Positions 1,602 through 33,623 of a stretch of DNA of 37,443 nt are shown here, piece by piece (the stretch's first letter is position 1; each line of letters starts with the position of its first letter). Under the pieces are notes generated by a model, which was not told the origin of the DNA, searched no databases, and worked only from the letters and a program-made list of their open reading frames with translations. The position numbers and the translations under genes were made by a program. The stretch is from Candidatus Saccharimonadales bacterium (lineage in GTDB: Bacteria; Patescibacteriota; Saccharimonadia; Saccharimonadales; JBPEXE01): positions 1 through 37,443 of the forward strand of contig JBPEXE010000136.1 in assembly GCA_052031955.1 (NCBI GenBank), written 5' to 3'.

Positions 1602-2152
1602 ATTGGTTTATCTTTGAGGCCAAGCTTCCAGCCAATCACGGTGGCTATAGGGTGTAAGGAAATGCCAACTAGTGCGGCAGCGGCGTATTGTGATATCGAC
1701 AAGGCGCCAACCGGAATACTAAAAATCAAGGCGCCGATGACATAATCAATTTGGTCAAATGGCACCCATGCTTCACCGGGCTTGATGTTGATTTGTCGCT
1801 TCAAGAAACTCTCAAAGGCATCGCCAACCAGGGCGCCAAGCCCAATGAGTAGTGCTAGTTCAACATACTCACTGACGCCCATATCAAAGAATTCGAGTCT
1901 GTTTAGCACGTCAAACTGCTCACTTAAACCATATTGCACGAGGGCGATTGATACGGCGAAAATGAGGCCGGCTACGATGCCACGATAGGTCTTGTTGCGA
2001 CCAAAAATCGGGTGACCTCGGAATGTTTTGCCACCATCAAGTGGAATATCTAATGTGTCGAGAAAGGGAATCTTTTTTGCCCAAATCGGCGCCATGTTGC
2101 TGAACATCGCCGGCAACAGGAACCAAAATCCTTGAGCAATTAAGTAAAACAT
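1598..2152 (-). CDS. carS: CDP-archaeol synthase (CarS/DUF46)-family membrane cytidylyltransferase
   Basis: 184-aa multi-pass hydrophobic protein. LLPAMFSNMAP...LDGGKTFRGHPIFGRNKTYRG and GDAFESFLKRQ...PFDQIDY match the conserved CarS blocks as I recall them. It starts 12 nt downstream of the PHP gene and shares a 4-nt stop-stop overlap with 120..1601. Confidence 0.7.
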   Translation of the reverse strand: MFYLIAQGFWFLLPAMFSNMAPIWAKKIPFLDTLDIPLDGGKTFRGHPIFGRNKTYRGIVAGLIFAVSIALVQYGLSEQFDVLNRLEFFDMGVSEYVELALLIGLGALVGDAFESFLKRQINIKPGEAWVPFDQIDYVIGALIFSIPVGALSISQYAAAALVGISLHPIATVIGWKLGLKDKPI

Positions 2153-4486: not shown

Positions 4487-5566
4487 ATGATTGAAGCAGG
4501 GTTGGTTGCGGTAATTATTATCCAGATTGTTATGATCTTTTTTTTGACGAGCTCGCGCGGCAAGAAGAACGACTCGGAGTCAGCGGCTCTGCTGAAAGCA
4601 GACATGACTAAGCTGTCGGACGACATGAACAAGCTGCGAGAGGGCTTGGGAGACAAACTGAGTGATGGGCTGTATAAAAATCAGGAAATGATGGTCAAAA
4701 GTCTGCAAAAGCAGTTTGCCCAAAGCTCCAAGCTAATCTCTGAAGTGACGACCAACTTGACCGAGATTAAGGAGTCTAACAAGCAAGTTGTTTCGGTGAC
4801 CGACGAGCTGAAGACATTGCAGAATATTTTGCAGAATCCAAAACAGCGCGGTGTGCTCGGCGAGTATTATCTACAGACCGTACTTGAAAACGTCCTGCCC
4901 GCCGATCGATTTGCCATGCAGTACAAATTTAAGGACGGCAACATTGTTGATGCCGTTATCTTCTTGGACAAAAATAAAATTCTGCCGGTTGACTCTAAGT
5001 TTAGTCTTGAGAACTACAACCGCTTTGTTGAGTCCAAGAGCAAAGTAGAGCGCGAGCGACTGGCGAAGCTCTTCAAAGCAGACTTAAAGGCTCGTATCGA
5101 TGAAACTGCGAAATACGTACGCCCGCAAGAAAACACGCTCGACCATGCTTTTATGTTTATACCCTCAGAGGCAATTTATTATGACTTGCTATCTGGTGAC
5201 AATAGTATTGGCGTCGGTGTGTCGTCACGCGATTTGCTTGAGTACGCCTTCCGTGAAAAGAAGGTTATTATTGTCAGCCCGACGACGTTCATGGCCTATC
5301 TCCAGACAGTTATACAGGGCTTACGCAGCCTGCAGATTGAAGAGAAGGCAAAAGATATTCAGAAACGAGTTGGCGAGCTTGGGCGCCACATCACGGTGTA
5401 TGAGGATTACATGCAAAAGCTTGGCAAATCGCTTGGCACGACCGTCAATCACTACAACAATGCTCACAAAGAACTTGGCAAGATTGATAAAGACGTTGTG
5501 CGTATCGCTGATGCATCACCCGGCGTCGAACCGCTTCTCGTGGATAGGCCTAGCGAGCAAGAATAA
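4487..5566 (+). CDS. rmuC: DNA recombination protein RmuC
   Basis: N-terminal TM helix, then a coiled-coil-like region, then NPKQRGVLGEYYLQTVLENVLP and FIPSEAIYYDLL, as in RmuC family proteins. Confidence 0.85.
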   Translation: MIEAGLVAVIIIQIVMIFFLTSSRGKKNDSESAALLKADMTKLSDDMNKLREGLGDKLSDGLYKNQEMMVKSLQKQFAQSSKLISEVTTNLTEIKESNKQVVSVTDELKTLQNILQNPKQRGVLGEYYLQTVLENVLPADRFAMQYKFKDGNIVDAVIFLDKNKILPVDSKFSLENYNRFVESKSKVERERLAKLFKADLKARIDETAKYVRPQENTLDHAFMFIPSEAIYYDLLSGDNSIGVGVSSRDLLEYAFREKKVIIVSPTTFMAYLQTVIQGLRSLQIEEKAKDIQKRVGELGRHITVYEDYMQKLGKSLGTTVNHYNNAHKELGKIDKDVVRIADASPGVEPLLVDRPSEQE

Positions 5567-6920
5567 GTTTCTTACGATGGATGTGGTAGCGATGGCGCAG
5601 CCATATGGCGAGCAATATGATGCCACCGGCAATGCCAAAGAACCAGCGGTTATCGAGCGGTTTTTCTATCACAGATACAGAAAAGTAGCGGGTATACTGA
5701 CAACCTGTATCATCGGCAATCGAAATACTGCCTGAGTAGTTGCCCGTGCGCTGATAGACATGGTGCAGGCTATAGCTTTGGGCCGAATTACGGTTAAAGC
5801 GTTCGGTTATCGAGTCGCCCCAGTCGAGGATGACTTCGTAGGGCGGTGTGCCGCTGACGCCGGTGATGTTTAGATCAATGCCATCGCCTTCGTCCACCCC
5901 CCAGTAACGGTACTCTGACAGCCAGAAACGATGTGTCGAACAGCGTTCCGGGTCGCCTGTAAACAGCACGGTTGTGAGGTTGGAAAAGTCGCTACACACA
6001 TCGCCGTCGCAGGCTATGGCACGAATATCTTGCGAGGTTGCGCTGACATCTAAATTGAAGAACCAATTTCCGTCGGCATTAGTAAATGTTGAGCCAATTG
6101 GCTCACCGTTGAGATAGATAATAATCTGGGTGTTTGGTGGGCCGGTGCCACGAATCAATATTGGTGTCTCACCAGATTCTATTTCGCCATCGATTGATGT
6201 GATGATTGGAGGGGTCAGTGCACCACTGTTGTTACCGGCATTAGACTGGACCGGCAGAATAATGAACTTCTCTTTGAGTGTTTGGTGTGAGGTGAGTCCA
6301 CCTTGTGAGCTGGTGGCTGTTGCGTTGTGCTCGCCAAAGTAATAGCCGGTGGTATCGACTGAAATTGAGTACCGCCCGTCAGGACCGCTTTGCGGACGCA
6401 ACACGGTCACGCCGCCATCAAGTGAAATCTCTACAATTGCATTTGGGATAGTTGAGCCCGAGAAAGTTACGAGTTCGCCTTCAGTAGCACTGACCGGCCT
6501 TGCAGCCAGTGTTGGTGGTAAGAAGTACTCAACAGCAGTGTCTGATTGTGCTCGCACATTGACAGTCTGCACAAGAGGATCCGACGTTAGTCCGTCACGG
6601 TCCTGGTATGTAATGCGGAATCTGTGTAGGCCGGCACGCATGGCGCTAAAATTCTTTTCAAATACGCCGTTGCTGTCAGCCAGCACGGTACCAACCAGGG
6701 CATTCCCGTCAACAATTTGCACAAAGGCGCCGGGTGAGGCAAATCCCTTAATTGTCAGCCTGGTGTTCGGAATCGTGAATTGGACAGGGGCAGAGGATGC
6801 AGAAACAGGACTATGTGCCACGAAAACAGGCAATAGCATAACAAGCACTGCGACTAGTATTTTAGAAATGTTTTTGAGCAAGCTTTTTGTTTTTTCGCTT
6901 ACGCTTTTATTGTAGCGCAA
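5550..6920 (-). CDS. surface protein: signal peptide, three Ig-like repeats, PKD-like domain, C-terminal TM anchor
   Basis: TTG start at 6918-6920, preceded by AGGAG. Signal peptide ILVAVLVMLLPVFVAHSPVSA. Three similar beta-sandwich-type segments (aa ~45-122, 140-215, 236-320). PKD-like LDWGDS...HHVYQRTGNYSGSISI. C-terminal WFFGIAGGIILLAIWL followed by RHRYHIHRKK. Last gene of the envelope locus. Confidence 0.7.
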   Translation of the reverse strand: MRYNKSVSEKTKSLLKNISKILVAVLVMLLPVFVAHSPVSASSAPVQFTIPNTRLTIKGFASPGAFVQIVDGNALVGTVLADSNGVFEKNFSAMRAGLHRFRITYQDRDGLTSDPLVQTVNVRAQSDTAVEYFLPPTLAARPVSATEGELVTFSGSTIPNAIVEISLDGGVTVLRPQSGPDGRYSISVDTTGYYFGEHNATATSSQGGLTSHQTLKEKFIILPVQSNAGNNSGALTPPIITSIDGEIESGETPILIRGTGPPNTQIIIYLNGEPIGSTFTNADGNWFFNLDVSATSQDIRAIACDGDVCSDFSNLTTVLFTGDPERCSTHRFWLSEYRYWGVDEGDGIDLNITGVSGTPPYEVILDWGDSITERFNRNSAQSYSLHHVYQRTGNYSGSISIADDTGCQYTRYFSVSVIEKPLDNRWFFGIAGGIILLAIWLRHRYHIHRKKLILAR

Positions 6921-6955
6921 ATGCTCCTAATTTTCGACAGATTGACGACAGATGT

Positions 6956-7912
6956 CTAATTCTTACCGGCCAGGACCTTGAAGGCAGCGCCCAGGCGTGA
7001 GCGGAATTTCACAAGAATGAAGAGCAATACGATGACCACGACTGCGATTGGCAGGATGGTTTGCCATGGGAAGATAATGAAGGTCGTTTCAGCGTGAATT
7101 TGGTTATCATCTTCACCATACACGAGGTCAAGCTCGGCTGTGTAGCGGCCAACCGCAAAGCCAGGGTCGCTCCATTCGGTTTCAAGCTTCCGAATCGTGT
7201 CCGGTAGAACATTGCGCTCTTCAACCACAATTTTGGTTACTTCGTTGCCGAACATATTCTTGATTGTGATGGTGCCGGTCGGCTTGTAGTGGACATTCCC
7301 TGTGTTGTTCAGGCGGGTTTCAAACAGGATTGGTTTCTCGTTTGTCCAGAAGCTCTTGGTTGAGGCGAATGACTCAATACCGCCCTCTTCAACAATATCG
7401 CCAGCCACACTGGCTAAGATAACCGGTGCGAGACGTTGTACAACTGATGCGCCGGCGCCTTCGGTGGAGTCGCCTGGTACGGTTTCGAATGTGACAGTAC
7501 CATAGTGACCACCCGGTTCGGCGTTGCCTGGTACGGCTATCGTCACGGTAAAGTCCTGTGTGGTGTTTGGTGCCACGCTGACTGCTTCCGGCTCAACGGT
7601 AATCCATGCAGCCAATGAGAACGATGTCTCGTCTTCGGTTGGTACAGAGCCACCTTCTTCACCGGTTGGTACGATGTTTTGCGGTGTTGCGAGGAGTTCA
7701 ACGGGGAGGTCGCTGTTATTGGTGATGCGAATGGTGTTAACGATTGGTTCGTCACCAGGATTTGCGGTGACTTCAATGAGTTGCGGTGACATAGTCAGCG
7801 ATACTTGATCAGCCTCTTGTGCGCGGACAATCTGCCATGCGAATAACGAAATTAATGCTGCAGCCAACACAGCGACACTCAACACCCACCGAAAATTAAG
7901 CCGTGAAGTCAT
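6956..7912 (-). CDS. type-I membrane 'anchor 2', DUF916/DUF3324-like (CscA-type) or NEW3/CARDB-like ectodomain
   Basis: Signal peptide; VSLTMSPQLIEVTANPGD, AAWITVEPE, AEPGGHYGTVTFE, NNTGNVHYKP; C-terminal TM (ILPIAVVVIVLLFILV) with a 17-aa basic tail. Clear paralog of 9240..10790. Strong SD (TAAGGAGGG). Confidence 0.6.
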   Translation of the reverse strand: MTSRLNFRWVLSVAVLAAALISLFAWQIVRAQEADQVSLTMSPQLIEVTANPGDEPIVNTIRITNNSDLPVELLATPQNIVPTGEEGGSVPTEDETSFSLAAWITVEPEAVSVAPNTTQDFTVTIAVPGNAEPGGHYGTVTFETVPGDSTEGAGASVVQRLAPVILASVAGDIVEEGGIESFASTKSFWTNEKPILFETRLNNTGNVHYKPTGTITIKNMFGNEVTKIVVEERNVLPDTIRKLETEWSDPGFAVGRYTAELDLVYGEDDNQIHAETTFIIFPWQTILPIAVVVIVLLFILVKFRSRLGAAFKVLAGKN

Positions 7913-7943
7913 AAAATGACACCCTCCTTACGAATTTACAACT

Positions 7944-7972
7944 ATTGTAATAGACATCTGTTGTAACCACAA
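7944..7972 (-). promoter_or_regulatory. internal promoter for anchor-2 / Ig-PKD genes
   Basis: Minus strand reads TTGTGG (7967-7972), a 17-nt spacer, then TACAAT (7944-7949), about 30 nt upstream of the ATG at 7912. Confidence 0.5.
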
Positions 7973-7996
7973 GAGACAGAGGGGTGGAATATGAAA

Positions 7997-8022
7997 ACCC
8001 CCGAGGCTTATTCCCCGGGGGT
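7997..8022 (-). terminator. rho-independent terminator/attenuator after the 352-aa gene
   Basis: Minus-strand RNA: ACCCCCG - 12-nt loop - CGGGGGU, followed by UUUC. GC-rich 6-7 bp stem, 43 nt downstream of the stop at 8065. Confidence 0.45.
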
Positions 8023-8064
8023 ACATATCTTTCGTCGTTTAATTTTTAGAGTACGTCGTCGTGT

Positions 8065-9123
8065 TTAGAATGATGCAACAACTGTGTAGACAATGTTGGT
8101 TGTGTAGGTACCTGCTTCGGTACTTGATGCTACACCAACTTGATGCGCTACTGTTGTGGTGCCTGCTTCGTCCGTCATTACCTCTTCGTTAGTCGTCGTG
8201 AAGCCAGCCCATTCACCACCTGGGTTTGTAAAGCGGTCGGCGCCATCGCCAACTGCGCTAAGTGATGAGTCGCTTGTTGCGTAGCCCCATGCTTCCGTGC
8301 CCACGGCTGGGAATGAAGTTGGAGCTGAGTTTGTGCCTGTATGGTTATCGATTGTGTCACTGTTAGAGTTTGTTAGGGATCCTGTGTGTCGAATATAGAC
8401 GGTATAGCCGCCGGATGCATTAGTCGTAACATCCAAGTTATGAGCTGAAACACCATTCTGTGATGCGGTCACGTCATTTAGATAGTCGATAGAAGATGCG
8501 GTCGATGCGTGAGTTGTATTGGTGCCAGAAACTGCGGTAGATGCTGCAACGCCGGATACAGTAAATGTCAGATTAGGGTCGATGGTCAAGGAAACTTGGG
8601 TACCGGTCTTGGTGGCAAATGCGATTACGACTGTGTCGACAGGGGTTGTACATGCATCATCAGTGTAGGTCGTGAGGGTCGCAAAGAATGTGTCGTCGGT
8701 ATTCGGGTTAGTCACACCGGTAAATACGAGTGTGCCGTTTGCTGCAGGTGTTTCACCTGGGTTGAATGTTATTTCGAGAAGACCATCGGTAGCAAAGTCT
8801 TCTGTCCAACTGGCCTCTGTAATCAGAGTTCCAGATGCGTCGAGTGCAGCTCCTGTGGTACTCATGCCTGCTGGTGTACCGCCAGAACCGTCTGCGTTGA
8901 CCGTGAATAGCGTTTGAATACATTGTATCGTCGTACCCGCATCATAGCCGGATGCGTCAACCGTGTATGTCACGCCAGTCTCACTTGGTCTTGGATCGCT
9001 CATCGTCACGGATGCTGAGCTTAGGGCTGCAACTGAAGCCACATTGCCAATCACCATTGCTGATGCCGCAAATCCAATAGCAAGACCACGAATTCGCTTT
9101 TTAAAGCGAGAGATCTTGAACAT
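8065..9123 (-). CDS. secreted Thr/Ser/Ala-rich protein with the shared C-terminal (WxL-like) docking domain; putative abundant surface subunit
   Basis: Signal peptide (RGLAIGFAASAMVIGNVASVAA). No TM and no LPXTG at the C-terminus. aa ~176-352 are homologous to the last ~169 aa of the giant protein. Excellent SD (AAGGAGAG) and its own downstream terminator. Confidence 0.65.
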   Translation of the reverse strand: MFKISRFKKRIRGLAIGFAASAMVIGNVASVAALSSASVTMSDPRPSETGVTYTVDASGYDAGTTIQCIQTLFTVNADGSGGTPAGMSTTGAALDASGTLITEASWTEDFATDGLLEITFNPGETPAANGTLVFTGVTNPNTDDTFFATLTTYTDDACTTPVDTVVIAFATKTGTQVSLTIDPNLTFTVSGVAASTAVSGTNTTHASTASSIDYLNDVTASQNGVSAHNLDVTTNASGGYTVYIRHTGSLTNSNSDTIDNHTGTNSAPTSFPAVGTEAWGYATSDSSLSAVGDGADRFTNPGGEWAGFTTTNEEVMTDEAGTTTVAHQVGVASSTEAGTYTTNIVYTVVASF

Positions 9124-9239
9124 ACGTTCTCTCCTTATGTTTGTTTTTTATTAGTTTTTTGTTTTCCAGCGCACCAAACCCATGAGGCGCTTGCTAGAAT
9201 GCATATATTTAAGCATAAGCCACATCAAGAGGCAAGGGG

Positions 9240-10790
9240 TTATTTGGTTGTCTTCTTCTTTGCTGTGGATGACTTGGCTTTGGGTTTTGTTGTCTGGGTG
9301 GCTTTTTTTGCGGTTGATTTCTTAGTTGGCGCTTTGGTTGAAGTAGATTTCTTAGATGTCATGGCTGTTTTCTTTACAGGAGATTTCTTTGTAGTCGTCT
9401 TCTTTGCGGCCGGTTTTTTAGAGGCCCTATTCTTCTTAGCGACAGCTTTTTTTGTGGCTGCTTTTTGCTGAGCAGTGGTTTTCTTAGTCTGCTCAACAGG
9501 CTCAACGTCTTCATGGTCGCGTACTTGAATTGATTTTTTCGGACTCTGCTTGAGCGGTTCTTCATCCGGGTCAAAGAATGGCGATTTCTCACGCACAATG
9601 GTGCTGGCGCTGGTTTGGGTGATGAAGGTTGTACTGTCGTTATTATTCTTCACGCGCGTTTCGCTAATGACTTTCGGCTTTGGTGTGGGCGTTTGGTGTG
9701 TCATTGTCTTGATTTCATCAGACTCTTTTTTGTGAAGCATATCGGGTAGCCCAAAAATTGTTTTTGGCCGATTTTCTTCTTCAATCGCCCGCGCAACTTT
9801 TTCGAGTTCTTTGGTGTCCGGTGCTGATTCCGGTAACTTTTCGTCGCCACTGTAGCGCGTGTAATTCCGTCCGCTAAAGTTGGCATGCCCACGCAGCACC
9901 GCCATGGTGCGCGGGATATTCTTTCGCTTCACAAACAACAACAGGATACCCACAGCCAGGAATATCCAGACAGCGATTAACAAATAATTTGGCACAACCA
10001 GGAACTCATGCTCGGTGGTGGCGAGCGGAATACTTTGGTTGCCATAGGTTGCTTCAGCTCGAATTTGATACGTACCATAATCGACGTCTGCCAGCCACGT
10101 CGGAACTTCAAAGACTTTTTCGGTATTTGGCAGGATTAACTGTGGTTGCAGGCTGAAAATCTCAACAATTTCGCCATCTTTAGAAATAGTCACCCGCGGG
10201 GCAGGGAGGATGTGCACATTGCCAAGGTTTCGAATTCGGAAACTAAGATTAAGCTCATCGCCACGGGTTATGTTTGATATCGCCAAATCATCATCGACAA
10301 TTTCGGCACTCTCGTTTATGTCGCCCGACACGGTGATGAGCAGGGATGCGCTTAGCTGGGGAGAAACCGTTGTAGCGTCGCGTGGTGCATCAATAACTCC
10401 CGGCGTAAGCGTGATTAATGCGTAGTGCCCACCCGGGCTGGCTTCTTCTGGGATTGTGACGGTAAAGTTGAGGGTCTTGCGTTGCTCGGCATCGAAGGCA
10501 ATGGTTTTTTCTTCTAGCTCAATCCAGGCCGAAGCATCAAAGTTGCTACGGCGAGCTTGGTCGATGAAGTTATCAACCGGAACAAGTGCTTCGGTGCCCA
10601 AGAAACCTGCAATCGGCTCGTTGCCTGTGTTTTGGAAGGTGACCGTGCTGGAGAAACTTTGGCCGGGGTCGCCGGACAGCTCTATAATTGCCGGGCTGAC
10701 GGCCAGGCTCAAGTCGGCCTGCTGCTGAGCACGGACAGAGACGGGCGCCAAGAGGCTGGCAAGGAGTGTGAACAGGAGGAGCTTTTTCAT
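9240..10790 (-). CDS. type-I membrane 'anchor 1', DUF916/DUF3324-like ectodomain plus a 229-aa cytoplasmic tail with a Lys-rich end
   Basis: Signal peptide; LSLAVSPAIIELSGDPGQ, ASAWIELEE, ASPGGHYALITLT, RNLGNVHILP; TM at aa ~268-287 followed by KRK; tail aa 288-516. ATG 10788-10790 abuts the giant gene stop (10791-10793). Confidence 0.65.
   Translation of the reverse strand: MKKLLLFTLLASLLAPVSVRAQQQADLSLAVSPAIIELSGDPGQSFSSTVTFQNTGNEPIAGFLGTEALVPVDNFIDQARRSNFDASAWIELEEKTIAFDAEQRKTLNFTVTIPEEASPGGHYALITLTPGVIDAPRDATTVSPQLSASLLITVSGDINESAEIVDDDLAISNITRGDELNLSFRIRNLGNVHILPAPRVTISKDGEIVEIFSLQPQLILPNTEKVFEVPTWLADVDYGTYQIRAEATYGNQSIPLATTEHEFLVVPNYLLIAVWIFLAVGILLLFVKRKNIPRTMAVLRGHANFSGRNYTRYSGDEKLPESAPDTKELEKVARAIEEENRPKTIFGLPDMLHKKESDEIKTMTHQTPTPKPKVISETRVKNNNDSTTFITQTSASTIVREKSPFFDPDEEPLKQSPKKSIQVRDHEDVEPVEQTKKTTAQQKAATKKAVAKKNRASKKPAAKKTTTKKSPVKKTAMTSKKSTSTKAPTKKSTAKKATQTTKPKAKSSTAKKKTTK
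9243..9488 (-). repeat. low-complexity Lys/Thr/Ala/Ser-rich coding repeats (histone-H1-like tail)
   Basis: aa 435-516: TKKTTAQQKAATKKAVAKKNRASKKPAAKKTTTKKSPVKKTAMTSKKSTSTKAPTKKSTAKKATQTTKPKAKSSTAKKKTTK. At DNA level, gatttctt(a/t)g-type units recur imperfectly. Confidence 0.8.
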
Positions 10791-13700
10791 CTAAAACCTC
10801 GCCGTAATGTTATAGATTATCGTTGTTGTAAACTCGCCGATGGCTGTTACATTCGGAACCGTTACTCGATGTGTGATAATGAATGACTCGTTCACAATTG
10901 GGGTGCCGCTGACGGTCGAAGTGTGATCGGCAATAATATCACCCGGCGCACTGAGGCTCCACGGGGCATAGCAAGGCGGGTTGCCGCCACCGGCACATGG
11001 TGCGCCACCGAATTTATTTGAGCCCTGCACATCGGTGTCTGAACTGGTATAGCCAAAGCCAAAGTCACCCACCAGCCACTCGTCGGGACTGACATAGGTC
11101 CCACCGTCAAACATGCTGACATTATCTGTGCCATTTGTTAGCACGCCGGTCGCATAGCCACGCACCACGTAGCCGTTGTAGGCATTGGTGGATGTCGTAA
11201 TCGTCGTGTTGCCGGTGGCCGTGTAATTGTTGCCCGGGTTAAGATTTCCCAGGTCGAGTGCGCTGCCACTGAGTGAGAAGTTGAGGGTAGGTGCCACAAA
11301 CTGGCCATCTGATGAGATCACGCTTTCAGACCCAGCGTTATCAGTTGTTCGTATATTCACGAAATACGGTTGGGATGTTGTGAGTGTTAGTGATGAGTCA
11401 CTAAACGAAGTTGAGGTACCGACGCTTGTCCATGCCTTGACGTCTGTTGCCCCGGCGACGGTTCCAATCGAGTACTCGTAGCCAACCAAGCCTGATGATG
11501 AACTGTCAATATTCCAGTTTGCTTCGAGTGTATCTAGGGCGCCTGAGTTATATTCGACATCGACACCTACAGACGAGCCGTCATAAACCGTGCCGGTTGG
11601 CGGTGAAGAATCAATAGCAAAGTCACGCGCGCTCTCGGCATTTGCGCCAAAGCTTACCCAGCCTGAATATGCACCCAAACTATCTTTGGTGCGGGCTTGC
11701 CAATGGTACTCTTCACCATCGGTCAGACTGGATAACGTTACACTGGCAGCCACTGGGGAGCCGGTATAGGAAGCGCCGGTACCACAGCTGGTCTCGGAAT
11801 TGGTAAAAGGTGTGCCAAGTGGCTGTATTTCGACGCACAATGCAACTGAGTCGGGGTTATCTGAGTCTGAAACTTGCGCCGTGAAGACAACGCTTGATTC
11901 ATTCGTCCAGTTTCCGACGCTAATTGCATCGGTGTTGGTCTTTTCTTGCCCAAGTGAGCTCGGATTATCAGGAGCTGTGTTGTTGGTAGGTGACTGATAG
12001 AAAATCATATTGATGTAGGGTGGGAGGTGGTTTTCGGTAGAGAATCCGGTTACATCGATGCTGTGCGTGTGCACAGCCTCATCACCAACACTACCCGAGC
12101 GCCCATCAATCGTCTGATTGGCGGCGCCAGACGCGATTCCGGTCACATCACTATGCGTATGTGTGCTCGCACCACCAGTCGTGCCGTAGCCATTGGCGGC
12201 CTTGAAGAATCGTTGATACAAATCGTCGCCACCTGTGCACGACACGCATGTCCATGTGCCACCTGGATTATCAGTCCACATTGATATGAGGCCGCCAGGG
12301 ATCGAGGTGTCGGTCGTGGCCTGACCGAGAACCATCTCTATGAAAGGCGGTTGTTTGTCGACGCTTCCCGTATTGCCGCTAACGGTATGATCGTGCGAAT
12401 TTGTAGCTCGCGGGGCGGTACTACCGTTGGTGCGCGGACTTGCTGTCGTAGGGCTATTTGCACTCGACGTATTTCCGGTAATACTGTGGCTATCACTATT
12501 ATTCCCACCGGTCGTACCGATGGTATTCTCACCATAAGTAAAGTTTCCGTCCTGAGCACTGTATCGTGTGAAATCTGTCGGCATAGTTGTGGTCGTAAAG
12601 AGTCCAATCGCCCCGTTTGGAATCGTCGAAGGGGTGCCACCGTTAAACTGGATGATTTGTAGTTGTCGGTACGCCGGCAGGTTGCTCTCGGAGCTGATTA
12701 TTGGTGAGTAAGTGTGCGTGTGTGTTGGTGTAGACACGGTTGCACCTCCCTGATCTTCACTTGTAGCTGCCGTGCCAGTTGCGCTCACAGCGCCAGAGGC
12801 AGTATGGCTATGCGTTGCTGAGCCGCCGGTGCCGCCATAGGTCGCGGCTCCACGAATCATGCGTTGAAATGCTTCATCACCACCACTACACGAGATACAG
12901 GTCCATCCCGACGGAATCGATGCGCCATCGTACAACAAAATCATTTTGGGCGGTGGGGGAGGGGTTGTGAGTTCGGGAATTGCCGTATACGTATCGAGAG
13001 GCGTACCGTCACTCTTCACGATGCGTAGACAATAGGTTGTTTCTGACGGTGCGTTCACGTCAATCAAAGCAAAGTCCCATAGCCCATCCTCGCCAATCCC
13101 GATGCCAGACTGCGCGTTGGTGAAGTTGTTTGTTTCCTCGTATGTTTGGATGTTGACCGTATCTGCACCGTGCGTTGGATCGTTTGCGTTCACAGTAGCC
13201 GCTGCAGCGTCACTTATACCACTGTTGTCGTAATAGCGAATGTCCCCACTTGCAGTGCCGACGTCAAAGAACGTCTCGCCGGTGAAGGTCGGGTCACAGG
13301 TTCCACTTTGAACGGCATATTGTAGTTTAAAGTTTTCGCCACTTGAGCTTAATGCGACCTCCGAAATGTGCAGATTCATACGTAACCGGAAAGGGGTTCC
13401 TTGGGTCGGTGTTGTGATCGCTGTGTCCTGTGTATCGATTGGGGCGCCAACATCTGTTGAGACATCATTCTCATAGAATCGATAAGCACTCTGCTCATAC
13501 TTTGTGACTGGGTTGTACTTGGCGAAGTAGGCGTTAAAGTGGGGCGGCTCGTGGTTGAGGGTGCTATAACCGGTAACGCTCACGTTGTGGGTATGTACGT
13601 TTGAGGCGCCAGCCGTTCCGGATCGGGCCGAAGAAGTTGCTGATGGCTGGGTAGACACAATGCCCGTTGTGTTGGTGTGGGTGTGAGTGGCCGAGCCACC

Positions 13701-16400
13701 GGTCGCACCATACGTGGCAGCCGGCTTGATATATCTTCCGTTGAGCGGCTTACCGCTGCCGGAGTAATCATCCCAGCCGACAGGTGCGTCTGCATTCCAG
13801 ATGCCAACAAAACCTAGCGGTACCGGCTGAGCGCTGGCGTTGGTTGCCAAAACCATTTCCAGATATGGTGGCTCATTGCTGGCGCTAGCGCTCGTACCGC
13901 TAAATGTGTGCGTGTGTCCTGTTGATGCGCCATCTGTCTGTGTGCCACCGCCACGCGATGCCTGATCGGTGGCTGTACTTGCCGCTAGCAAACTGCCAGT
14001 AAACGAAGTGGTATGTGTATTCGAACCACCCGTGCTGCCAACAGTATTTTCTCCACGTATGTAGTTTCCGGTCTGCACGCCATACGACGTCCAACCGGCT
14101 GGCAGTGAGGTTGTGTCGAATACGCCCACCGTGCCAGCTGGCAACGTGGCGGGCATTCCGGTCGTGTCATAGCGAATCAAGCGCAGTTGTCGATAGGCAG
14201 GCAGGTTGTTAGACGGGTCAATCGTTACGTTGGCGGTATGGGTGTGAGCGACACCCGACACGGCATTACCGCTTCTGGGCTCTGTGGTTGCGAGTGTGGA
14301 TGCTGCAGCTGAGGCAGCCGCAGTATGGGTATGGGTTGCCGCACCGGCATTGCCCCCGTATGTCGCGGCGCCTTTCGCGAAGCGCTGGAAGAAGTCATTA
14401 CCGGTTGTGCATGATACGCAGCTCCAGCCCGCCGGCATCGCACCGGTGCCACTGTAGAAAACGATAAGATTTCCAACGGCGTCTCCGGCAATCTGCCATG
14501 ACCTTTGTTCGCTAAATTCTGGCGAGTTTATTTCTCCAACCACGAGCGGGCCGAGTGTGTAGAACTCCGGCGAAATATCAGGCGCGTCAAAAATATATCC
14601 GAGCGCAACGCTTTGACCAGCCGGAATATCGACATCCCAAGTGATAATCTGCTGATTGCCAACAATACTAATCTCATTGTAAGTTTGACTGTTGTTATCC
14701 GGAGCGATGTCGAAATCAACAGGCACAACTTCATGCACTCTACCCCGGTAGCCGTCTTTTGAGAAAACCTGCAGCCGCATTGGGTATTCAAGAATCGGGA
14801 AAACACGCGTTGGTCCGACACGGCTGACCTCGAACGAAGGGTCATCTATCACATCAAGACTTGAGTAGACTGTGTAGCTGCCATTTTGGGTGTTGGCTTC
14901 GAGCTCAAATGCATACGCACCCGTTTCTTCTAGCACTTGCTGAGCAATGTAATCAGGATCAATCTGCGCGCCATACTCCGGACAGGTTTCGGTGACTTGG
15001 ATCGAGTCGTTCTCAGTCGATAACGTAAAACTTCGGCTCGGAGTGGTAATGACAAGCCGAAGGTCGGCATCGCAGATGGTGCGTCCTTGCTCGTCAAGCA
15101 CGGCCATCTGAATCTGAGCGGTTTCATCAGGGCGATAGGATGACTTATCGAAGTTTAAGGCCAGCACACCCCAGACAAAGTCCTGGGTAACGGTCTGAGT
15201 GGTGCCACTCCCATCATCAAGCGATAACTCAATTGAGTATTCGCCGGGGTCAAGTGACTGTGGCACAATACCGGCATCTACCGTCCATATGTGTCGGTTG
15301 CTCGTATCTGATTTGATAAAGTCGCCTTCCACTGTTTGGCGTGCGACTTCATAGCCGTCGTTGTCGTAAATGGTAGCTTCGACGCTGAGTGGCAGTGAAC
15401 GGTCGCCGACGGTTTCGGTGGCTTTGCTTCGCAGCCCTTGCCAGATTCCGTCATTGGGGTCTTTAATGCCAACTTCAAACTGCAGGTCTGCCGGGTCAGA
15501 GATAGCGGGCTTGGCTTCACCGCGCGGTGAATTATCGACCGGATTAATCAGGTGAGCGCTGACCTCACGTTGTGGTCCGGCCTCATAGGTCCAGGCGAGA
15601 GACTCGGCAAAGACAGTGATTGAGTTCGAGTCTGCAACGGTTGCCAGGCGGAACGATAGGTCTTCCGATGATGAGATGAGTTCCACGGGCAAAGCAATAT
15701 CGTACACGGTTGTTTCAGTGGCCGTGAGTTCAGTGCCAAAGGTGTGCAGTGTATGCCACGATCCACCCCCGTCATTTGACATGCTGAGCTGCAGGAATGC
15801 ATCGGTGCTCACAATTGATGCATCCGGGGCGTACGCATTTGGTTCAAGCAACTCACCGCGATCATCCAGGCGCTCGTTGAGGATTGCGCCGTCTTGCAGC
15901 GTAGCGCTGATTGTTTCTGCACTGGAACTGTCGCTGACCACATCAATTTCCTGAGGGGCTTGATTCACGGCCTTGAGTACCACTCGCACACCATGATTGA
16001 GTCGAGAATGCTCTAGGATTGGCGAGTAGCCGCCACAGGTAATCACTCCTGCCGTTCCGGTGCTGACCGCTGCATTTTCGGTTGTGATGTCATCGCGAGT
16101 GGGACTGGTTCGTACCGATTGTTGCCCCGTTGTGTGTTCGGGGTATTGCCATTCAGGACCGCTCGAACATTGGGTTGGAGCGACAGCAAAGATAGAGCCT
16201 TCGTCGCCAACGTCGGCAACAATACGAGGTGCTGCCAGGAGCGAAATAAAACCTAAAATAAGCACACTGTAAACCACCCGCTCGCGAACGTTCAGCGGAG
16301 TGATGATTGTGCTCATTTTGCGCTTTATTTTTCTAGGGGTGGCCGCGACTCGTGCGGTGATTCCCTTGCTGCGCTTTGGCATGCGTGAAACCCCATTCAC
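10791..16400 (-). CDS. giant secreted surface protein (1869 aa) with 2 x 3 tail-collar/HxH modules and a shared C-terminal docking domain
   Basis: Uninterrupted 5.6-kb ORF. Basic N-terminus then a hydrophobic signal/anchor (VVYSVLILGFISLLAAPRIVA). The start is ambiguous: GTG 16400, ATG 16382 or ATG 16316. Ig/MG-like region (FVWGVLALNFDKSSYRPDETAQIQMAVLD). Two module triplets with a spacer domain and a PPPPP linker. Two beta-sandwich modules (EEYHWQARTKDSLGAYSGW; SGLVGYEYSIGT). C-terminal ~169 aa homologous to the end of the 352-aa protein. I found no LPXTG. Confidence 0.85.
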   Translation of the reverse strand: MNGVSRMPKRSKGITARVAATPRKIKRKMSTIITPLNVRERVVYSVLILGFISLLAAPRIVADVGDEGSIFAVAPTQCSSGPEWQYPEHTTGQQSVRTSPTRDDITTENAAVSTGTAGVITCGGYSPILEHSRLNHGVRVVLKAVNQAPQEIDVVSDSSSAETISATLQDGAILNERLDDRGELLEPNAYAPDASIVSTDAFLQLSMSNDGGGSWHTLHTFGTELTATETTVYDIALPVELISSSEDLSFRLATVADSNSITVFAESLAWTYEAGPQREVSAHLINPVDNSPRGEAKPAISDPADLQFEVGIKDPNDGIWQGLRSKATETVGDRSLPLSVEATIYDNDGYEVARQTVEGDFIKSDTSNRHIWTVDAGIVPQSLDPGEYSIELSLDDGSGTTQTVTQDFVWGVLALNFDKSSYRPDETAQIQMAVLDEQGRTICDADLRLVITTPSRSFTLSTENDSIQVTETCPEYGAQIDPDYIAQQVLEETGAYAFELEANTQNGSYTVYSSLDVIDDPSFEVSRVGPTRVFPILEYPMRLQVFSKDGYRGRVHEVVPVDFDIAPDNNSQTYNEISIVGNQQIITWDVDIPAGQSVALGYIFDAPDISPEFYTLGPLVVGEINSPEFSEQRSWQIAGDAVGNLIVFYSGTGAMPAGWSCVSCTTGNDFFQRFAKGAATYGGNAGAATHTHTAAASAAASTLATTEPRSGNAVSGVAHTHTANVTIDPSNNLPAYRQLRLIRYDTTGMPATLPAGTVGVFDTTSLPAGWTSYGVQTGNYIRGENTVGSTGGSNTHTTSFTGSLLAASTATDQASRGGGTQTDGASTGHTHTFSGTSASASNEPPYLEMVLATNASAQPVPLGFVGIWNADAPVGWDDYSGSGKPLNGRYIKPAATYGATGGSATHTHTNTTGIVSTQPSATSSARSGTAGASNVHTHNVSVTGYSTLNHEPPHFNAYFAKYNPVTKYEQSAYRFYENDVSTDVGAPIDTQDTAITTPTQGTPFRLRMNLHISEVALSSSGENFKLQYAVQSGTCDPTFTGETFFDVGTASGDIRYYDNSGISDAAAATVNANDPTHGADTVNIQTYEETNNFTNAQSGIGIGEDGLWDFALIDVNAPSETTYCLRIVKSDGTPLDTYTAIPELTTPPPPPKMILLYDGASIPSGWTCISCSGGDEAFQRMIRGAATYGGTGGSATHSHTASGAVSATGTAATSEDQGGATVSTPTHTHTYSPIISSESNLPAYRQLQIIQFNGGTPSTIPNGAIGLFTTTTMPTDFTRYSAQDGNFTYGENTIGTTGGNNSDSHSITGNTSSANSPTTASPRTNGSTAPRATNSHDHTVSGNTGSVDKQPPFIEMVLGQATTDTSIPGGLISMWTDNPGGTWTCVSCTGGDDLYQRFFKAANGYGTTGGASTHTHSDVTGIASGAANQTIDGRSGSVGDEAVHTHSIDVTGFSTENHLPPYINMIFYQSPTNNTAPDNPSSLGQEKTNTDAISVGNWTNESSVVFTAQVSDSDNPDSVALCVEIQPLGTPFTNSETSCGTGASYTGSPVAASVTLSSLTDGEEYHWQARTKDSLGAYSGWVSFGANAESARDFAIDSSPPTGTVYDGSSVGVDVEYNSGALDTLEANWNIDSSSSGLVGYEYSIGTVAGATDVKAWTSVGTSTSFSDSSLTLTTSQPYFVNIRTTDNAGSESVISSDGQFVAPTLNFSLSGSALDLGNLNPGNNYTATGNTTITTSTNAYNGYVVRGYATGVLTNGTDNVSMFDGGTYVSPDEWLVGDFGFGYTSSDTDVQGSNKFGGAPCAGGGNPPCYAPWSLSAPGDIIADHTSTVSGTPIVNESFIITHRVTVPNVTAIGEFTTTIIYNITARF
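11994..12944 (-). repeat. intragenic protein repeat: triplet B of tail-collar/HxH modules (aa 1153-1469)
   Basis: B1 GWTCISC..YGGTGGSATHSHT..PTHTHTYSP..NLPAYRQLQIIQF. B2 GTTGGNNSDSHS..NSHDHTVSG..KQPPFIEMVLG. B3 TWTCVSC..YGTTGGASTHTHS..AVHTHSIDV..HLPPYINMIFYQ. Confidence 0.8.
13515..14480 (-). repeat. intragenic protein repeat: triplet A of tail-collar/HxH modules (aa ~641-962)
   Basis: A1 GWSCVSC..YGGNAGAATHTHT..VAHTHTANV..NNLPAYRQLRLIRY. A2 GSTGGSNTHTTS..TGHTHTFSG..NEPPYLEMVLA. A3 YGATGGSATHTHT..NVHTHNVSV..HEPPHFNAYFAKY. Confidence 0.8.
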
Positions 16401-16827: not shown

Positions 16828-16856
16828 ATAGTAACATGCTTATGCTAAATTGTCAA
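16828..16856 (-). promoter_or_regulatory. near-consensus sigma70-type promoter
   Basis: Minus strand reads TTGACA (16851-16856), exactly 17 nt, then TACTAT (16828-16833), about 60 nt upstream of the micro-ORF start. Confidence 0.6.
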
Positions 16857-16899: not shown

Positions 16900-18240
16900 T
16901 CAATCTTTTGCTTTGCTCGGAGTGATATGGGTTGATGCGAGGTCGAGCGCCAGGGCTGCTGTCCAGGAGAAAGGCGCAATGCCAGCGCCAAAACCATCAA
17001 TCGGGGAGAAGTACTCGCTAAAGCCGGCCTTCTCGACCATTTGTAGGGTTCGATGTTTTAAGTCTTCGGCCTCCTCGGTAAAGCCATAGCGTTGCAAGCC
17101 GTCAATAATCAGCCAGTTGGTGTTTACCCAGGTTGGCCCCTGCCAGTAGCGGCGATGGTTAAAGTACGGTGAGTTGAGTGGCACGCTCGGCACGGGGAAG
17201 TTAGCGCCGAATTGCTCGTCGTCTTTGATGAGTTTTACCAACTCTTTGGCGCGCGTCTTGGTAATGGCGCCGGAATAGAGGGGAAGGAGAGTAGACACAG
17301 TCGGCTCCTTAATGTGCTCCCTCGTTATGAACAGGCGAGAGTAGTACATGCCAGTCTCCTCATCCCACAGCTCATCGAGTGCCTTAGAGGCCTTATTCAT
17401 ATATGACAATGTGTGGCGGGGGATGGTTTCGCCAATCTCTTCGGCAATGTCTTTGACGTGCTGGTTGGCACGAATCAAAACCGAGTTAAAGAAGAGATCC
17501 TCAATAATAAAGTGCGAATGCAACAGGATGCGGTTTGTTTCGTACTGCTTGCGGCGTAGTCGTCGGACAACACTGAACAGCATCAAGCCTTCGACTGTGG
17601 TCATGCGTTCATCGGGGGGCACCTGTCGCGTGTCCTTGCGGAATCGCTCAATAATCTTGTCGGCGCTCGACCACTCAACCATCTTTATCCAGAGTGGCTT
17701 TTGGTGTTCATGCATCATGCGCATCCAGGGAGGGGTGTTATCAAGGCCTGTCTCCCAAGGATGGATTAAGACCACCAGCCCTTCGGCATGCGGATTGCGT
17801 TCACGATACAACCATTCATGGTAGGCAAGTAGATTTGGCCAGACTTTCCGGTACCAAGCGCGTCGATCGGCTGCTTTCATGTGCGACCCAACCCGAACAA
17901 TCGCCTCAGCCAACATTGGCGGTTGAGTGATGCCACTGGTTGCGACATCGTCTGGAGCATAAATCGACTGTCGGCTATCCCACATGTCAGGATTGTGATG
18001 GCCCTTGGCGTCAGTGAAGATCATGTTTGGAATCATGCCGTTGGTCCATTGGCCACGGAAGAGCGATAAAATCTCTTGTTGAGCCCGGCGTTGGGAGTAA
18101 TGTGCGATGCCGATTGCTGTGAAGCAACTGTCCCACAGCCATTGATGTGGATAGAGGTCGGGCGCGGGACGCGTCCACTTGCCGACGTCGTTATATTTAA
18201 GGACGTCTTTAGCGCCGGCGATGAGCTCGTCATGTTTCAT
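16900..18240 (-). CDS. (alpha/alpha)6-barrel glycoside hydrolase, GH63/MGH1-like (glucosyl-/mannosylglycerate hydrolase-like)
   Basis: 446 aa. YPHQWLWDSCF, HPWETGLDNTPPW and YWQGPTWVNTNWLIIDGLQRYG resemble conserved GH63/trehalase-like blocks. Substrate not inferable. Confidence 0.65.
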   Translation of the reverse strand: MKHDELIAGAKDVLKYNDVGKWTRPAPDLYPHQWLWDSCFTAIGIAHYSQRRAQQEILSLFRGQWTNGMIPNMIFTDAKGHHNPDMWDSRQSIYAPDDVATSGITQPPMLAEAIVRVGSHMKAADRRAWYRKVWPNLLAYHEWLYRERNPHAEGLVVLIHPWETGLDNTPPWMRMMHEHQKPLWIKMVEWSSADKIIERFRKDTRQVPPDERMTTVEGLMLFSVVRRLRRKQYETNRILLHSHFIIEDLFFNSVLIRANQHVKDIAEEIGETIPRHTLSYMNKASKALDELWDEETGMYYSRLFITREHIKEPTVSTLLPLYSGAITKTRAKELVKLIKDDEQFGANFPVPSVPLNSPYFNHRRYWQGPTWVNTNWLIIDGLQRYGFTEEAEDLKHRTLQMVEKAGFSEYFSPIDGFGAGIAPFSWTAALALDLASTHITPSKAKD

Positions 18241-32765: not shown

Positions 32766-33623
32766 ATGGCAACAAAAAAATCAATTGAAGAACTAGAAAA
32801 AATCGCCAATGACATGCGCCGAGACATCATCAAGATGCTGGAGCATGCCAAAAGTGGTCACTCGGCAGGACCGCTTGGCCTGTCTGACATCTTTGCGGCG
32901 CTCTATTTTGACGTCATGAAGCATGACCCGAAGAATCCTGAATGGGATGACCGCGACTTGCTGGTATTGTCAGCCGGTCACACTGTCCCGGTTCAGTATG
33001 TGGCCATGGCGCATTCCGGTTATTTCCCCAAGAAAGAGCTAATGACATTGCGTCAGTTCGGCACCCGATTGCAAGGGCATCCGGAACGAAAGAAGCTGCC
33101 CGGTCTTGAAACAACCAGCGGCCCTTTGGGTGAAGGGCTTTCACAAGCGGCGGGTATGGCCTATGTGCTTCGCATGAATCAGGAACATCACCGCTGGGTT
33201 TACTGTGTGACCGGCGATGGCGAGCTCAACGAGGGTAATATTTGGGAGGCGGCCATGTTTGCCGGCAAAAATAAGTTATATAACCTGACGGCCATTGTTG
33301 ATCGAAACAATATCCAGATCGACGGTAACACTGAGGACGTTATGCCACTTGAAGATTTGCGAGGCAAATGGGAAGCCTTTGGCTGGCATGTCATTGAAAT
33401 CGACGGCAACAACATCGAAGCCGTCATTGATGCTTGTGCCATGGGGCGTGCAATTGTTGAGAAGCCGGTTGTTATCCTCGCTCACACGGTTCCGGGCAAG
33501 GGAGTGGACTTTATGGAATATGACTTTCACTGGCACGGGGCACAACCGGATACGGCGCAGGCGAAGGTTGCCCTGAAGCAGCTTCGTTCGCTCGACGGTA
33601 AAATATCAGGAGACCACGACTAA
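32766..33623 (+). CDS. tkt: transketolase, N-terminal (TPP-binding) subunit
   Basis: HSAGPLGLSDIFAALYF, SAGHTVPVQY, GDGELNEGNIWEAAMFA. Confidence 0.9.
   Translation: MATKKSIEELEKIANDMRRDIIKMLEHAKSGHSAGPLGLSDIFAALYFDVMKHDPKNPEWDDRDLLVLSAGHTVPVQYVAMAHSGYFPKKELMTLRQFGTRLQGHPERKKLPGLETTSGPLGEGLSQAAGMAYVLRMNQEHHRWVYCVTGDGELNEGNIWEAAMFAGKNKLYNLTAIVDRNNIQIDGNTEDVMPLEDLRGKWEAFGWHVIEIDGNNIEAVIDACAMGRAIVEKPVVILAHTVPGKGVDFMEYDFHWHGAQPDTAQAKVALKQLRSLDGKISGDHD

Follow-up and report, generated by a model that had tools for sequence, protein, structure and literature searches.

The locus studied here raises the question of what a run of five proteins with N-terminal export signals, two of them predicted to be secreted and three to be held in the membrane, would assemble at the surface of a bacterium. 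It lies on contig JBPEXE010000136.1 (GenBank assembly GCA_052031955.1) of a Candidatus Saccharimonadales bacterium, in a stretch of 37,443 nucleotides that was analysed as a whole and is called the window throughout. The minus strand carries five consecutive open reading frames (ORFs), which run from position 16400 down to 5550 and encode, in this order, a giant secreted protein of up to 1869 amino acids (aa; 10791-16400), a 516-aa membrane protein (9240-10790), a 352-aa secreted protein (8065-9123), a 318-aa membrane protein (6956-7912) and a 456-aa membrane protein (5550-6920). These ORFs are not due to chance, because all four protein families tested have tens to hundreds of conserved homologues. 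We consider it likely that the locus is a divergent Pam-type pilus operon, which would build a chaperone-assisted, usher-less donor-strand-exchange fibre on the single membrane of a Saccharibacteria-like bacterium. It is not called a plain member of the Pam system because every match to the curated Pam models of NCBI falls below cut-off; as judged from sequences and structure models, it is Pam-type by architecture, remote homology and synteny.

Pam filaments are known from Ca. Mycosynbacter amalyticus, a Saccharibacteria-type parasite of the Candidate Phyla Radiation (CPR), where PamA and PamB were resolved by cryo-electron microscopy (cryo-EM; Troman et al., bioRxiv 10.64898/2026.03.03.709456). 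According to this preprint, Pam pilins polymerise by giving a linker strand to the neighbouring subunit, whose incomplete immunoglobulin (Ig)-like domain is completed by the donated strand. The pam operon further encodes PamC and PamD, two PapD/FimC-like proteins with a C-terminal transmembrane (TM) helix and a proposed role as chaperones, the tip protein PamT, and PamR, an RbmA-like TM protein proposed to end and anchor the fibre. Three NCBIfam models describe the system, NF058578 for PamR, NF058579 for PamT and NF058581 for the C-terminal domain of Pam pilins. A sequence-only reading of the stretch, which knew of no such locus in a CPR genome, has thus been overtaken by the 2026 preprint and these three models. 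By analogy, the Pam parts list maps one-to-one onto the five genes of the window.

The framework laid down by the sequence-only reading stood up to rechecking. It had listed the five same-strand genes at the coordinates given above and the zero spacer between the first two of them, where the stop codon of the giant (10791-10793) directly touches the ATG of the 516-aa gene (10788-10790). It had further taken the 516-aa and 318-aa proteins for paralogs, the two secreted proteins for relatives in their C-terminal domain, and the 456-aa protein for an Ig/PKD membrane protein, and it had noted a hairpin and a promoter-like site after the 352-aa gene; the results on each of these are given below. 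A hydrophobicity scan located an N-terminal signal or hydrophobic segment in all five proteins and a C-terminal TM helix in the 516-aa, 318-aa and 456-aa proteins, but not in the two secreted ones, as had been proposed. Motif searches of all five proteins found neither LPXTG, again in agreement with the earlier reading, nor the type IV prepilin motif G|F(T/S)L(I/L)E. Sortase, prepilin peptidase and assembly ATPase were not found among the genes of the window, nor was an usher-like gene in the locus.

The 352-aa protein, a secreted, Thr/Ser/Ala-rich protein with more than 170 close relatives, is most likely a pilin, as judged by homology. It matched NF058581 (CPR_Pam_pilin_C) with E 7e-5 and 22.9 bits over profile positions 8-148 of 148, and the same model was matched by 55 of 65 of its relatives, with a best E of 4e-10. 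Its AlphaFold2 model, with a predicted local distance difference test (pLDDT) score of 89, consisted of two beta domains with a coil of low confidence between them, at aa 172-184. Following the signal peptide, the protein would thus comprise an N-terminal beta-sandwich followed by a linker strand and by the C-terminal Pam-type domain. The linker T175-QVSLTIDP-N184 (8572-8601, minus strand) is a candidate donor strand, a role that is suggested by the cryo-EM structures of Pam. QVSLTIDP is coil in the monomer model, with a dip in pLDDT, and V177, L179, T180 and P183 hardly vary across the family; a segment of the form G-Q-x-V-S-[LM]-T-V-[DE]-P recurs across related loci.

The giant and the 352-aa protein share their C-terminal domain (CTD). 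The last ~250 aa of the giant aligned to the 352-aa protein with E 4e-5, and a CTD profile, iterated once on the ORFs of 80 related loci with recovery of 132 ORFs, matched the giant at aa 1696-1869 with E 1.6e-23. This segment (10794-11315, minus strand; last residues GEFTTTIIYNITARF-COOH) forms the end of the giant; likewise, all 74 matches of the first profile round had the domain at their extreme C-terminus. The same profile gathered the window pilin, the window giant, giants of 900-2700 aa, bona fide Pam pilins and proteins of ~210 aa that consist of little more than the domain; the pilins of loci L082, L068, L072, L065 and L063 were matched with E 1e-15 to 1e-19. Because it unites the giants, the window pilin and Pam pilins that pass the cut-off, the domain common to the giant and the 352-aa protein is, by sequence homology, the Pam pilin domain.

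Gene order gave a second line of comparison. GTDB species representatives were scanned for relatives of the 318-aa protein with a 28-sequence alignment, which yielded 231 stretches; locus counts refer to the best 80. To go by homologue source names and record titles, these come from Saccharibacteria, WWE3, Uhrbacteria, Terrybacteria, Berkelbacteria, Parcubacteria/Paceibacterota, Moranbacteria, Wolfebacteria and Gracilibacteria. The commonest pattern among the 80 was giant-chaperone-pilin-chaperone-PamR, with 13 exact cases and variants. Where enough flanking sequence was available, a PamR-like gene stood directly 3' of the seed chaperone in 51 of 74 loci, a pilin directly 5' of it in 44 of 71, and a second chaperone upstream in 39 of 56. 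Two of the loci, L082 and L068, bridge the window to the described system: their pilins scored 139-165 bits on NF058581 (cut-off 55) and their PamR proteins 261-295 bits on NF058578 (cut-off 300), the gene between pilin and PamR is a member of the 318-aa family (E 3e-84), and the N-terminal domain of their pilins matches that of the window pilin. In the window, pilin, chaperone and PamR-like genes are adjacent on one strand, in the same order as in L082 and L068.

Some of the related loci carry titles that name taxa outside the CPR (L006, L014, L019, L030, L035, L039, L042-L044, L046, L047, L066, L073, L078 and L080), with the labels Gammaproteobacteria, Pseudomonadales, Clostridia and Nanoarchaeia. 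These labels probably reflect mis-assigned taxonomy of metagenome-assembled genomes, because gene content and order match those of the CPR loci. If they were correct, the system would not be restricted to the CPR.

The 516-aa and 318-aa membrane proteins are paralogous to each other, as BLASTP aligned them over 305 aa with 26% identity and E 6e-22, the motifs PGGHY and GNVH included, the 516-aa protein also being recovered by the family hidden Markov model (HMM) with E 1e-73. Their TM helices were placed at residues 269-287 and 285-303 of the 516-aa and 318-aa protein, respectively. More than 130 relatives of the 318-aa protein were found, the named ones in Saccharibacteria/Saccharimonadales. 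Its AlphaFold2 model, built on a 70-sequence alignment, reached a pLDDT of 93.4 and showed two beta-sandwich domains and a C-terminal helix at 283-302. In a Foldseek search of the PDB, this model found the WxLIP of Enterococcus faecium first, as 9i25_C, in which it is bound to a long WxL protein (E 2.8e-11), and as 9i1y, where it is alone; RbmA came next, and then CfaA, FimC, CsuC, Caf1M, FaeE and SfaE. Matches to the chaperones of chaperone-usher systems had E 1e-10 to 1e-8, a probability of 1.00 and target-normalised template modelling scores of 0.47-0.56. Both membrane proteins thus have, to judge from model and sequence comparison, the PapD/FimC chaperone fold followed by a C-terminal TM helix.

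The first Foldseek match was borne out by sequence profiles. Single window sequences had produced nothing above cut-off in Pfam, NCBIfam or the PDB, and it took profiles and scans of whole families to go further. Pfam PF06030 (DUF916/WxLIP_PGBD) was matched by 47 of the 70 members of the 318-aa family, the window protein itself remaining under the cut-off of 27.3 bits (E 0.0027, 18.2 bits). The only significant match of the family profile in the PDB was EfmWxLIP1, with E 5e-5. An hhalign comparison of the family with five WxLIPs from annotated plasmid clusters of Enterococcus, Lactococcus and Lactiplantibacillus gave 98.8% probability and E 1.1e-16 over 235 columns that span DUF916 and DUF3324, against 4% for the reversed control. 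By these profile and fold comparisons, both the 516-aa and the 318-aa protein are homologous to the WxLIP (DUF916/DUF3324) of Firmicutes.

The two membrane proteins fall into distinct classes. All 54 chaperones followed by a PamR-like gene belong to the class of the 318-aa protein, class 2, which always precedes that gene. When the nearest neighbour outside its own locus was determined for each chaperone, 13 of 17 chaperones encoded after a giant paired with another after-giant chaperone and 75 of 80 encoded after a pilin with another after-pilin chaperone. Co-conservation of cargo and partner in relatives had been set as a test by the earlier reading, and it was found; each chaperone class stays with its upstream partner, as far as the sequences tell, and would bind it. 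We thus regard the 516-aa protein as the class-1 chaperone paired with the giant and the 318-aa protein as the class-2 chaperone paired with the pilin.

A peculiarity of the 516-aa protein is the 226-aa cytoplasmic tail that would follow its TM helix (aa 291-516; 9243-9920, minus strand), which is Lys/Thr/Ala-rich, with 19% K and a net charge of +28, and weakly matches histone H1-like HC2 (E 1.5e-6, below cut-off). The tails of related chaperones, where measurable, are mostly 14-40 aa long. Binding to DNA or RNA, or to the membrane surface, would be guesses as to its role.

The fifth gene encodes a protein with signal peptide, Ig-like domains and a C-terminal TM helix. The description as an Ig/PKD membrane protein held for the Ig part, with Big_6 at E 1.3e-16; PKD_4 reached only E 0.002 (Pfam). 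A region at aa 237-406 matched NF058578 (CPR_pilus_PamR) with E 2.7e-17 and 62.6 bits over profile positions 55-227 of 297. By sequence the protein is a domain-level relative of PamR, not an equivalog, and by analogy with PamR it is a probable terminator and membrane anchor of the fibre. As a hint of this role at the sequence level, the first 40 mature residues of PamR-like proteins contained a linker-like strand, with a mean best score of 13.2 as compared to 9.1 +/- 0.56 for shuffled sequences, 7.3-9.7 for other segments of the same proteins and 6.4-11.5 for segments of the chaperones.

The giant carries one N-terminal hydrophobic segment (aa 46-64) and no C-terminal TM helix, as seen in the hydrophobicity scan. 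Its start is uncertain, since ATG 16382 or ATG 16316 are possible instead of GTG 16400; the GTG-start version was not found by exact-sequence look-up in a public protein collection. Pfam gave no match above cut-off, and there was no match in PHROGs or among PDB sequences. Two super-repeats of ~315 aa, at aa 645-960 (13521-14468) and aa 1153-1467 (12000-12944, both minus strand), are 44% identical (BLASTP E 2e-75) and each consist of three sub-repeats with P.GW...GG..THxH motifs. The N-terminal ~350 aa had no counterpart in 31 homologous ORFs of related loci, whereas residues 400-640 and 1450-1869 are common to these ORFs, the C-terminal domain being the most conserved region among giants. In related CPR loci, this position is likewise taken by giants of 900-2700 aa. 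A distal part that varies, carried on a conserved module for joining the pilus, is what one would look for in a tip adhesin. Furthermore, inspection of the sequence revealed no V-x-[LM]-x-V pattern ahead of the C-terminal acceptor domain of the giant; with an acceptor domain but no donor-like pattern, it would sit at the tip of the fibre. The giant is therefore a probable tip adhesin.

In the repeats of the giant, GG..THxH and HTH motifs are regularly spaced, and there are CxxC pairs at C661/C664, C1168/C1171 and C1385/C1388. The HxH repeats recall what we take to be the metal-binding HxH motifs of phage tail fibres, a likeness that no profile library confirmed. In the accessible text of the Pam preprint, a neighbouring "tail fibre-like protein" is named in passing as a central node of pam neighbourhoods and has no pilus role assigned (bioRxiv 10.64898/2026.03.03.709456).

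Two further kinds of short ORF were seen in related loci. In many Parcubacteria-type loci, the place of the ~350-aa pilin, directly 5' of the class-2 chaperone, is taken by a ~210-aa protein that has a signal peptide and a V-x-V-x-A-x-V strand but, besides these, only the CTD. ORFs of ~200-215 aa were found in L020, L022, L023, L029, L032, L034, L036, L051, L052, L056, L067, L069 and L074, and the arrangement short protein-chaperone-PamR in 18 loci. Having no N-terminal domain, the ~210-aa protein may represent a minimal form of pilin, and perhaps it differs from PamT as published, for which the lack of a donor strand is reported. An ORF of ~180-190 aa lies on the opposite strand between the first chaperone and the pilin in three loci of Saccharimonadia whose Pam pilins are bona fide ones (L082:8259-8795, L072:8292-8861 and L065:8289-8861, all minus strand). 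These ORFs matched the CTD profile weakly, with E 1e-7 to 1e-8, and NF058581 with E 5.6e-5 on their last 33 residues; they could be real inverted genes, remnants or artefacts.

As for control sites, TTGACA-17-TACTAT with a TG extension (16828-16856, minus strand) was the best sigma-70-like promoter 5' of the giant gene; it agreed with 10 of 12 positions in the consensus scan and is a consensus match only. The hairpin reported directly 3' of the pilin gene was found at 7997-8022 (minus strand), with a 10-bp stem that contains 8 GC pairs, a 6-nt loop and a T-rich tail, TTTCATATTC; it is terminator-like and ranked top among the sites of the terminator scan. The promoter-like site TTGTGG-17-TACAAT that had been read beyond it is also present (7944-7972, minus strand); it scored under the threshold of the consensus scan and is a plausible site only. 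It is followed by a ribosome-binding site AAGGAGG (7929-7923) and the ATG of the 318-aa gene at 7912. Hairpin and internal promoter together would be an arrangement that allows the level of pilin to differ from that of the downstream genes.

Taken along the lines of the Pam model, the five proteins would work together as follows. All of them carry signal peptides and would be exported by Sec. Each membrane-anchored chaperone would lend a strand to the incomplete C-terminal Ig-like domain of its client, which would be the giant for the 516-aa class and the pilin for the 318-aa class. The pilin linker QVSLTIDP would then take over from the chaperone strand in the C-terminal domain of the subunit before it, so that the fibre would grow from its base, as the cryo-EM structures of PamA and PamB suggest. 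The giant, with its acceptor domain, its variable N-terminal ~350 aa and its HxH-rich repeats, would be the host-binding adhesin at the distal tip. Finally, the PamR-like protein would end elongation and tie the fibre to the cytoplasmic membrane via its TM helix, in line with the Pam model and with gene order.

The roles that the sequence-only reading had given to the two secreted proteins, adhesin for the giant and abundant fibre subunit for the 352-aa protein, are consistent with these findings. The view that each cargo is docked non-covalently on its own membrane protein, however, gives way to donor-strand polymerisation, which is better supported, and in the Pam model it is the PamR-like protein that is the real anchor.

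Several observations weigh against a Pam-type pilus. The 352-aa protein misses the curated cut-off of NF058581 (22.9 vs 55 bits) and the 456-aa protein the equivalog cut-off of NF058578 (62.6 vs 300 bits). Foldseek led from the pilin model to generic two-domain Ig-like adhesins, with no Pam entry among the top matches. Equivalence of the two membrane proteins with PamC and PamD is suggested indirectly, by the bridge through L082 and L068 and by the predicted fold. The AlphaFold2 models of the 318-aa and 352-aa proteins are those of monomers, and a groove with an inserted strand is what the Pam structures would predict for them; the tip placement of the giant is our inference only. The strand PVQFTIP of the window PamR-like protein (aa 45-51), which would correspond to the linker-like strand, falls within the first predicted Big_6 domain and may simply form an Ig-domain A-strand. 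When pilin linkers were matched locus by locus with PamR N-termini, the result was marginal, as 92 of 5000 permutations reached the observed value, and common descent confounds it. ATP synthase subunits, finally, whose genes are reported beside pam operons without strictly defining them, were not found among the 20 flanking ORFs scanned.

Set against the description of M. amalyticus, the locus shares with the Pam system that it belongs to the CPR, that its components would all be Sec-exported and that it has neither usher nor sortase. It also shares two TM-anchored PapD/FimC-like chaperones, an RbmA-like TM protein downstream, and the pilin-chaperone-PamR order of loci that reach or near the NCBI Pam cut-offs. 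It differs in having a single pilin gene where M. amalyticus has PamA, PamB and PamE, and in the scores of its pilin domain and PamR-like protein, which are far under the curated cut-offs. Its 1869-aa giant bears a pilin domain, whereas the published model places the small PamT at the tip. Further differences are the extra Big_6 domains of the PamR-like protein, the 226-aa basic cytoplasmic tail of one chaperone and, among the flanking ORFs scanned, a neighbourhood without the ATP synthase, CorB or major facilitator superfamily genes reported for pam.

With the chaperone-usher pili of Gram-negatives, be they classical, alternate or archaic (Pap/Fim, CFA/I, Csu, Caf1), the system shares the two-domain chaperone fold, as seen by Foldseek, an incomplete Ig-like subunit domain completed by a donated strand, established for Pam pilins according to the preprint, and a tip adhesin logic that can be compared with that of FimH and PapG. 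As its chaperones are TM-anchored and an usher is missing, it does not count as a classical chaperone-usher system; the CPR system also does without an outer membrane, and the chaperones of chaperone-usher pili are soluble. As described in the preprint, the donor strand of Pam pilins lies inside the chain, where it links one domain to the other, and does not extend the N-terminus, and the filaments are extended, not coiled. RbmA of Vibrio cholerae has a tandem Fn3/Ig-like fold that is reported there as a structural match of PamR (bioRxiv 10.64898/2026.03.03.709456), and the 456-aa protein matches the PamR model at the domain level. RbmA itself, however, is a secreted biofilm matrix scaffold without TM helix.

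The comparison with the WxL/Csc clusters of Firmicutes, which the sequence-only reading had put forward, stood on the side of the membrane partners and found no support on that of the cargo. In the Firmicutes, large as well as small WxL proteins are encoded in these clusters beside a WxLIP, which comprises DUF916, DUF3324 and a TM helix (Hassan et al. 2023, PMC10599100; PDB 9i1y, 9i25), and the literature knows WxL proteins as surface proteins bound to peptidoglycan, not as pili. The partner proteins of the two systems are homologous in sequence and fold, with the same order of domains and the same C-terminal TM helix. In both, a C-terminal domain is common to a short protein and to a long one that carries N-terminal binding domains, and the genes of the two adjoin that of a TM partner. 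Even the ends of the cargo are alike, as WxL proteins end in ...YTTTLTW.L..TP and the CPR domains in ...GTYTTT[VI][IV]Y....[YF]; the motifs that correspond to WxL, however, have Tyr, not Trp, in the CPR proteins. The fifth, PamR-like gene is conserved in CPR loci and sets them apart, as does the lack of a sortase in the window and of a small LPXTG protein of the CscD/Lwp type among the five proteins, both of which are present in the Enterococcus cluster L083.

Whether the pilin domain is a WxL domain was approached with profiles. Pfam WxL (PF13731) gave no match at E <= 1 in 65 + 33 cargo sequences, and the CTD profile had no match among PDB sequences. With hhalign, the CTD aligned to nine WxL sequences with 10% probability and P 0.003 (controls P 0.06-0.6), over the last strand only. 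Deepening did not help, since profiles of 129 sequences on each side gave 4% and P 0.01, again on the last strand only. A permissive hhalign alignment was collinear over 144 columns, with GY.I.I and TLTY standing opposite the two WxL motifs, and unfiltered HMM cross-searches between CTD and WxL barely exceeded reversed sequences. Homology of the pilin CTD to the WxL domain is thus unproven, at P about 0.003-0.01. Because there is no WxL domain match, no LPXTG protein and no sortase, we do not regard the locus as a member of the Firmicutes WxL clusters. As a separate observation, the end of the pilin N-terminal domain together with the linker (aa ~140-179; ~8587-8706 of the window) aligned by hhalign to columns 1-37 of the deep WxL profile with P 0.002, which is as good as the match of the C-terminal strand. 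The GPLSI strand of WxL may correspond to the linker, or the match may be noise.

It is tempting to go one step further and to derive Pam pili and the Firmicutes WxL/Csc systems, as two branches, from a single ancient donor-strand system of bacteria with one membrane, which would be chaperone-assisted and usher-less and related to the chaperone-usher pili of Gram-negatives. This proposal is tentative, and we would at present rather bet against it than for it. It would include that the Pam CTD is homologous to the WxL domain, with GY.V and.IY. as counterparts of the WxL motifs; that WxLIP is a membrane-tethered chaperone and not an anchor that binds peptidoglycan or host; and that the giants with their variable N-termini are interchangeable tip adhesins which set the host range of CPR episymbionts. 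Its half on the partner proteins is well supported, the half on the cargo domain is not. The accessible text of the Pam preprint (bioRxiv 10.64898/2026.03.03.709456) does not mention WxL or DUF916, and in the searchable literature we found no paper that connects WxL with either chaperone-usher or pilus assembly, nor one that connects DUF916 with the CPR. Because neither contains it, the link between Pam chaperones and WxLIP is, as far as can be told, not yet in the literature.

The partner homology might also be taken to mean that the locus works as a static display of the WxL type, in which each WxLIP-like protein permanently holds one cargo on the cell surface by non-covalent strand complementation and no polymer is formed. 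The partners are indeed true WxLIP homologues, a complex of WxLIP and WxL has been solved (9i25), the layout of long cargo, short cargo and TM partner mirrors that of the Firmicutes clusters, and cargo-partner pairs are co-conserved. We nevertheless find static display improbable: the cargo domain has no detectable WxL match and instead matches the Pam pilin domain, members of which form filaments by cryo-EM according to the preprint, and the pilin has a conserved donor-like linker. Static display would also leave the conserved fifth TM gene without a role, and a hairpin directly behind the pilin gene is in keeping with a gene for a major subunit.

The composition of the 352-aa protein, which is Thr/Ser/Ala-rich, secreted and, given the hairpin, probably abundant, would also suit a subunit of a non-filamentous S-layer or sheath, with the other genes as unrelated surface-protein neighbours. 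This is very unlikely, as the five-gene synteny is conserved across distant CPR lineages, giant and pilin have a common C-terminal domain, the neighbouring genes have a chaperone fold and the 352-aa protein is homologous to proven pilins; an S-layer was rejected on the lack of defining motifs or genes and on the conserved synteny. Saccharibacteria are known to use type IV pili for host binding, which brings a type IV or sortase-dependent pilus locus to mind. Both were rejected, since none of the five proteins has an LPXTG or prepilin motif and the window lacks the sortase, prepilin peptidase and assembly ATPase that define such systems; they are effectively refuted. A divergent Pam-type pilus thus remains the reading that we prefer.

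Some neighbours of the locus in the window deserve a remark. Directly upstream of it, at 16900-18240 (minus strand), lies a gene for a GH63/MGH1-like glycoside hydrolase (PF22422, E 2.4e-89). A 184-aa ORF at 1598-2152 (minus strand) matched the CDP-archaeol synthase family, CarS-like (PF01864, E 5.6e-30, 105 bits vs a cut-off of 22), an archaeal-type lipid-synthesis family that appears here in an apparent CPR bacterial genome. At 32766-34615 (plus strand), transketolase is split over two adjacent ORFs, with the N-terminal thiamine-diphosphate domain on 285 aa and the pyrimidine-binding and C-terminal parts on 330 aa. The split gene sits in a run of glycolysis and pentose-phosphate genes with GAPDH, class II aldolase and a PfkB kinase.

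The CPR, or Patescibacteria, make up a large share of bacterial diversity and, to our knowledge, all of their cultivated members live attached to host cells. In this setting, the locus points to a compact and widespread variant of the Pam pilus, found in Saccharibacteria, WWE3, Uhrbacteria, Parcubacteria and other lineages. With the giant, which combines a variable N-terminus and a conserved pilin-type C-terminus, it offers a concrete candidate for the host-binding tip. Pam-type chaperones, as homologues of WxLIP, connect chaperone-usher pili, the WxL/Csc virulence and adhesion clusters of Firmicutes and the pili of the CPR, and this homology suggests a testable rereading of WxLIP as a membrane-tethered chaperone.

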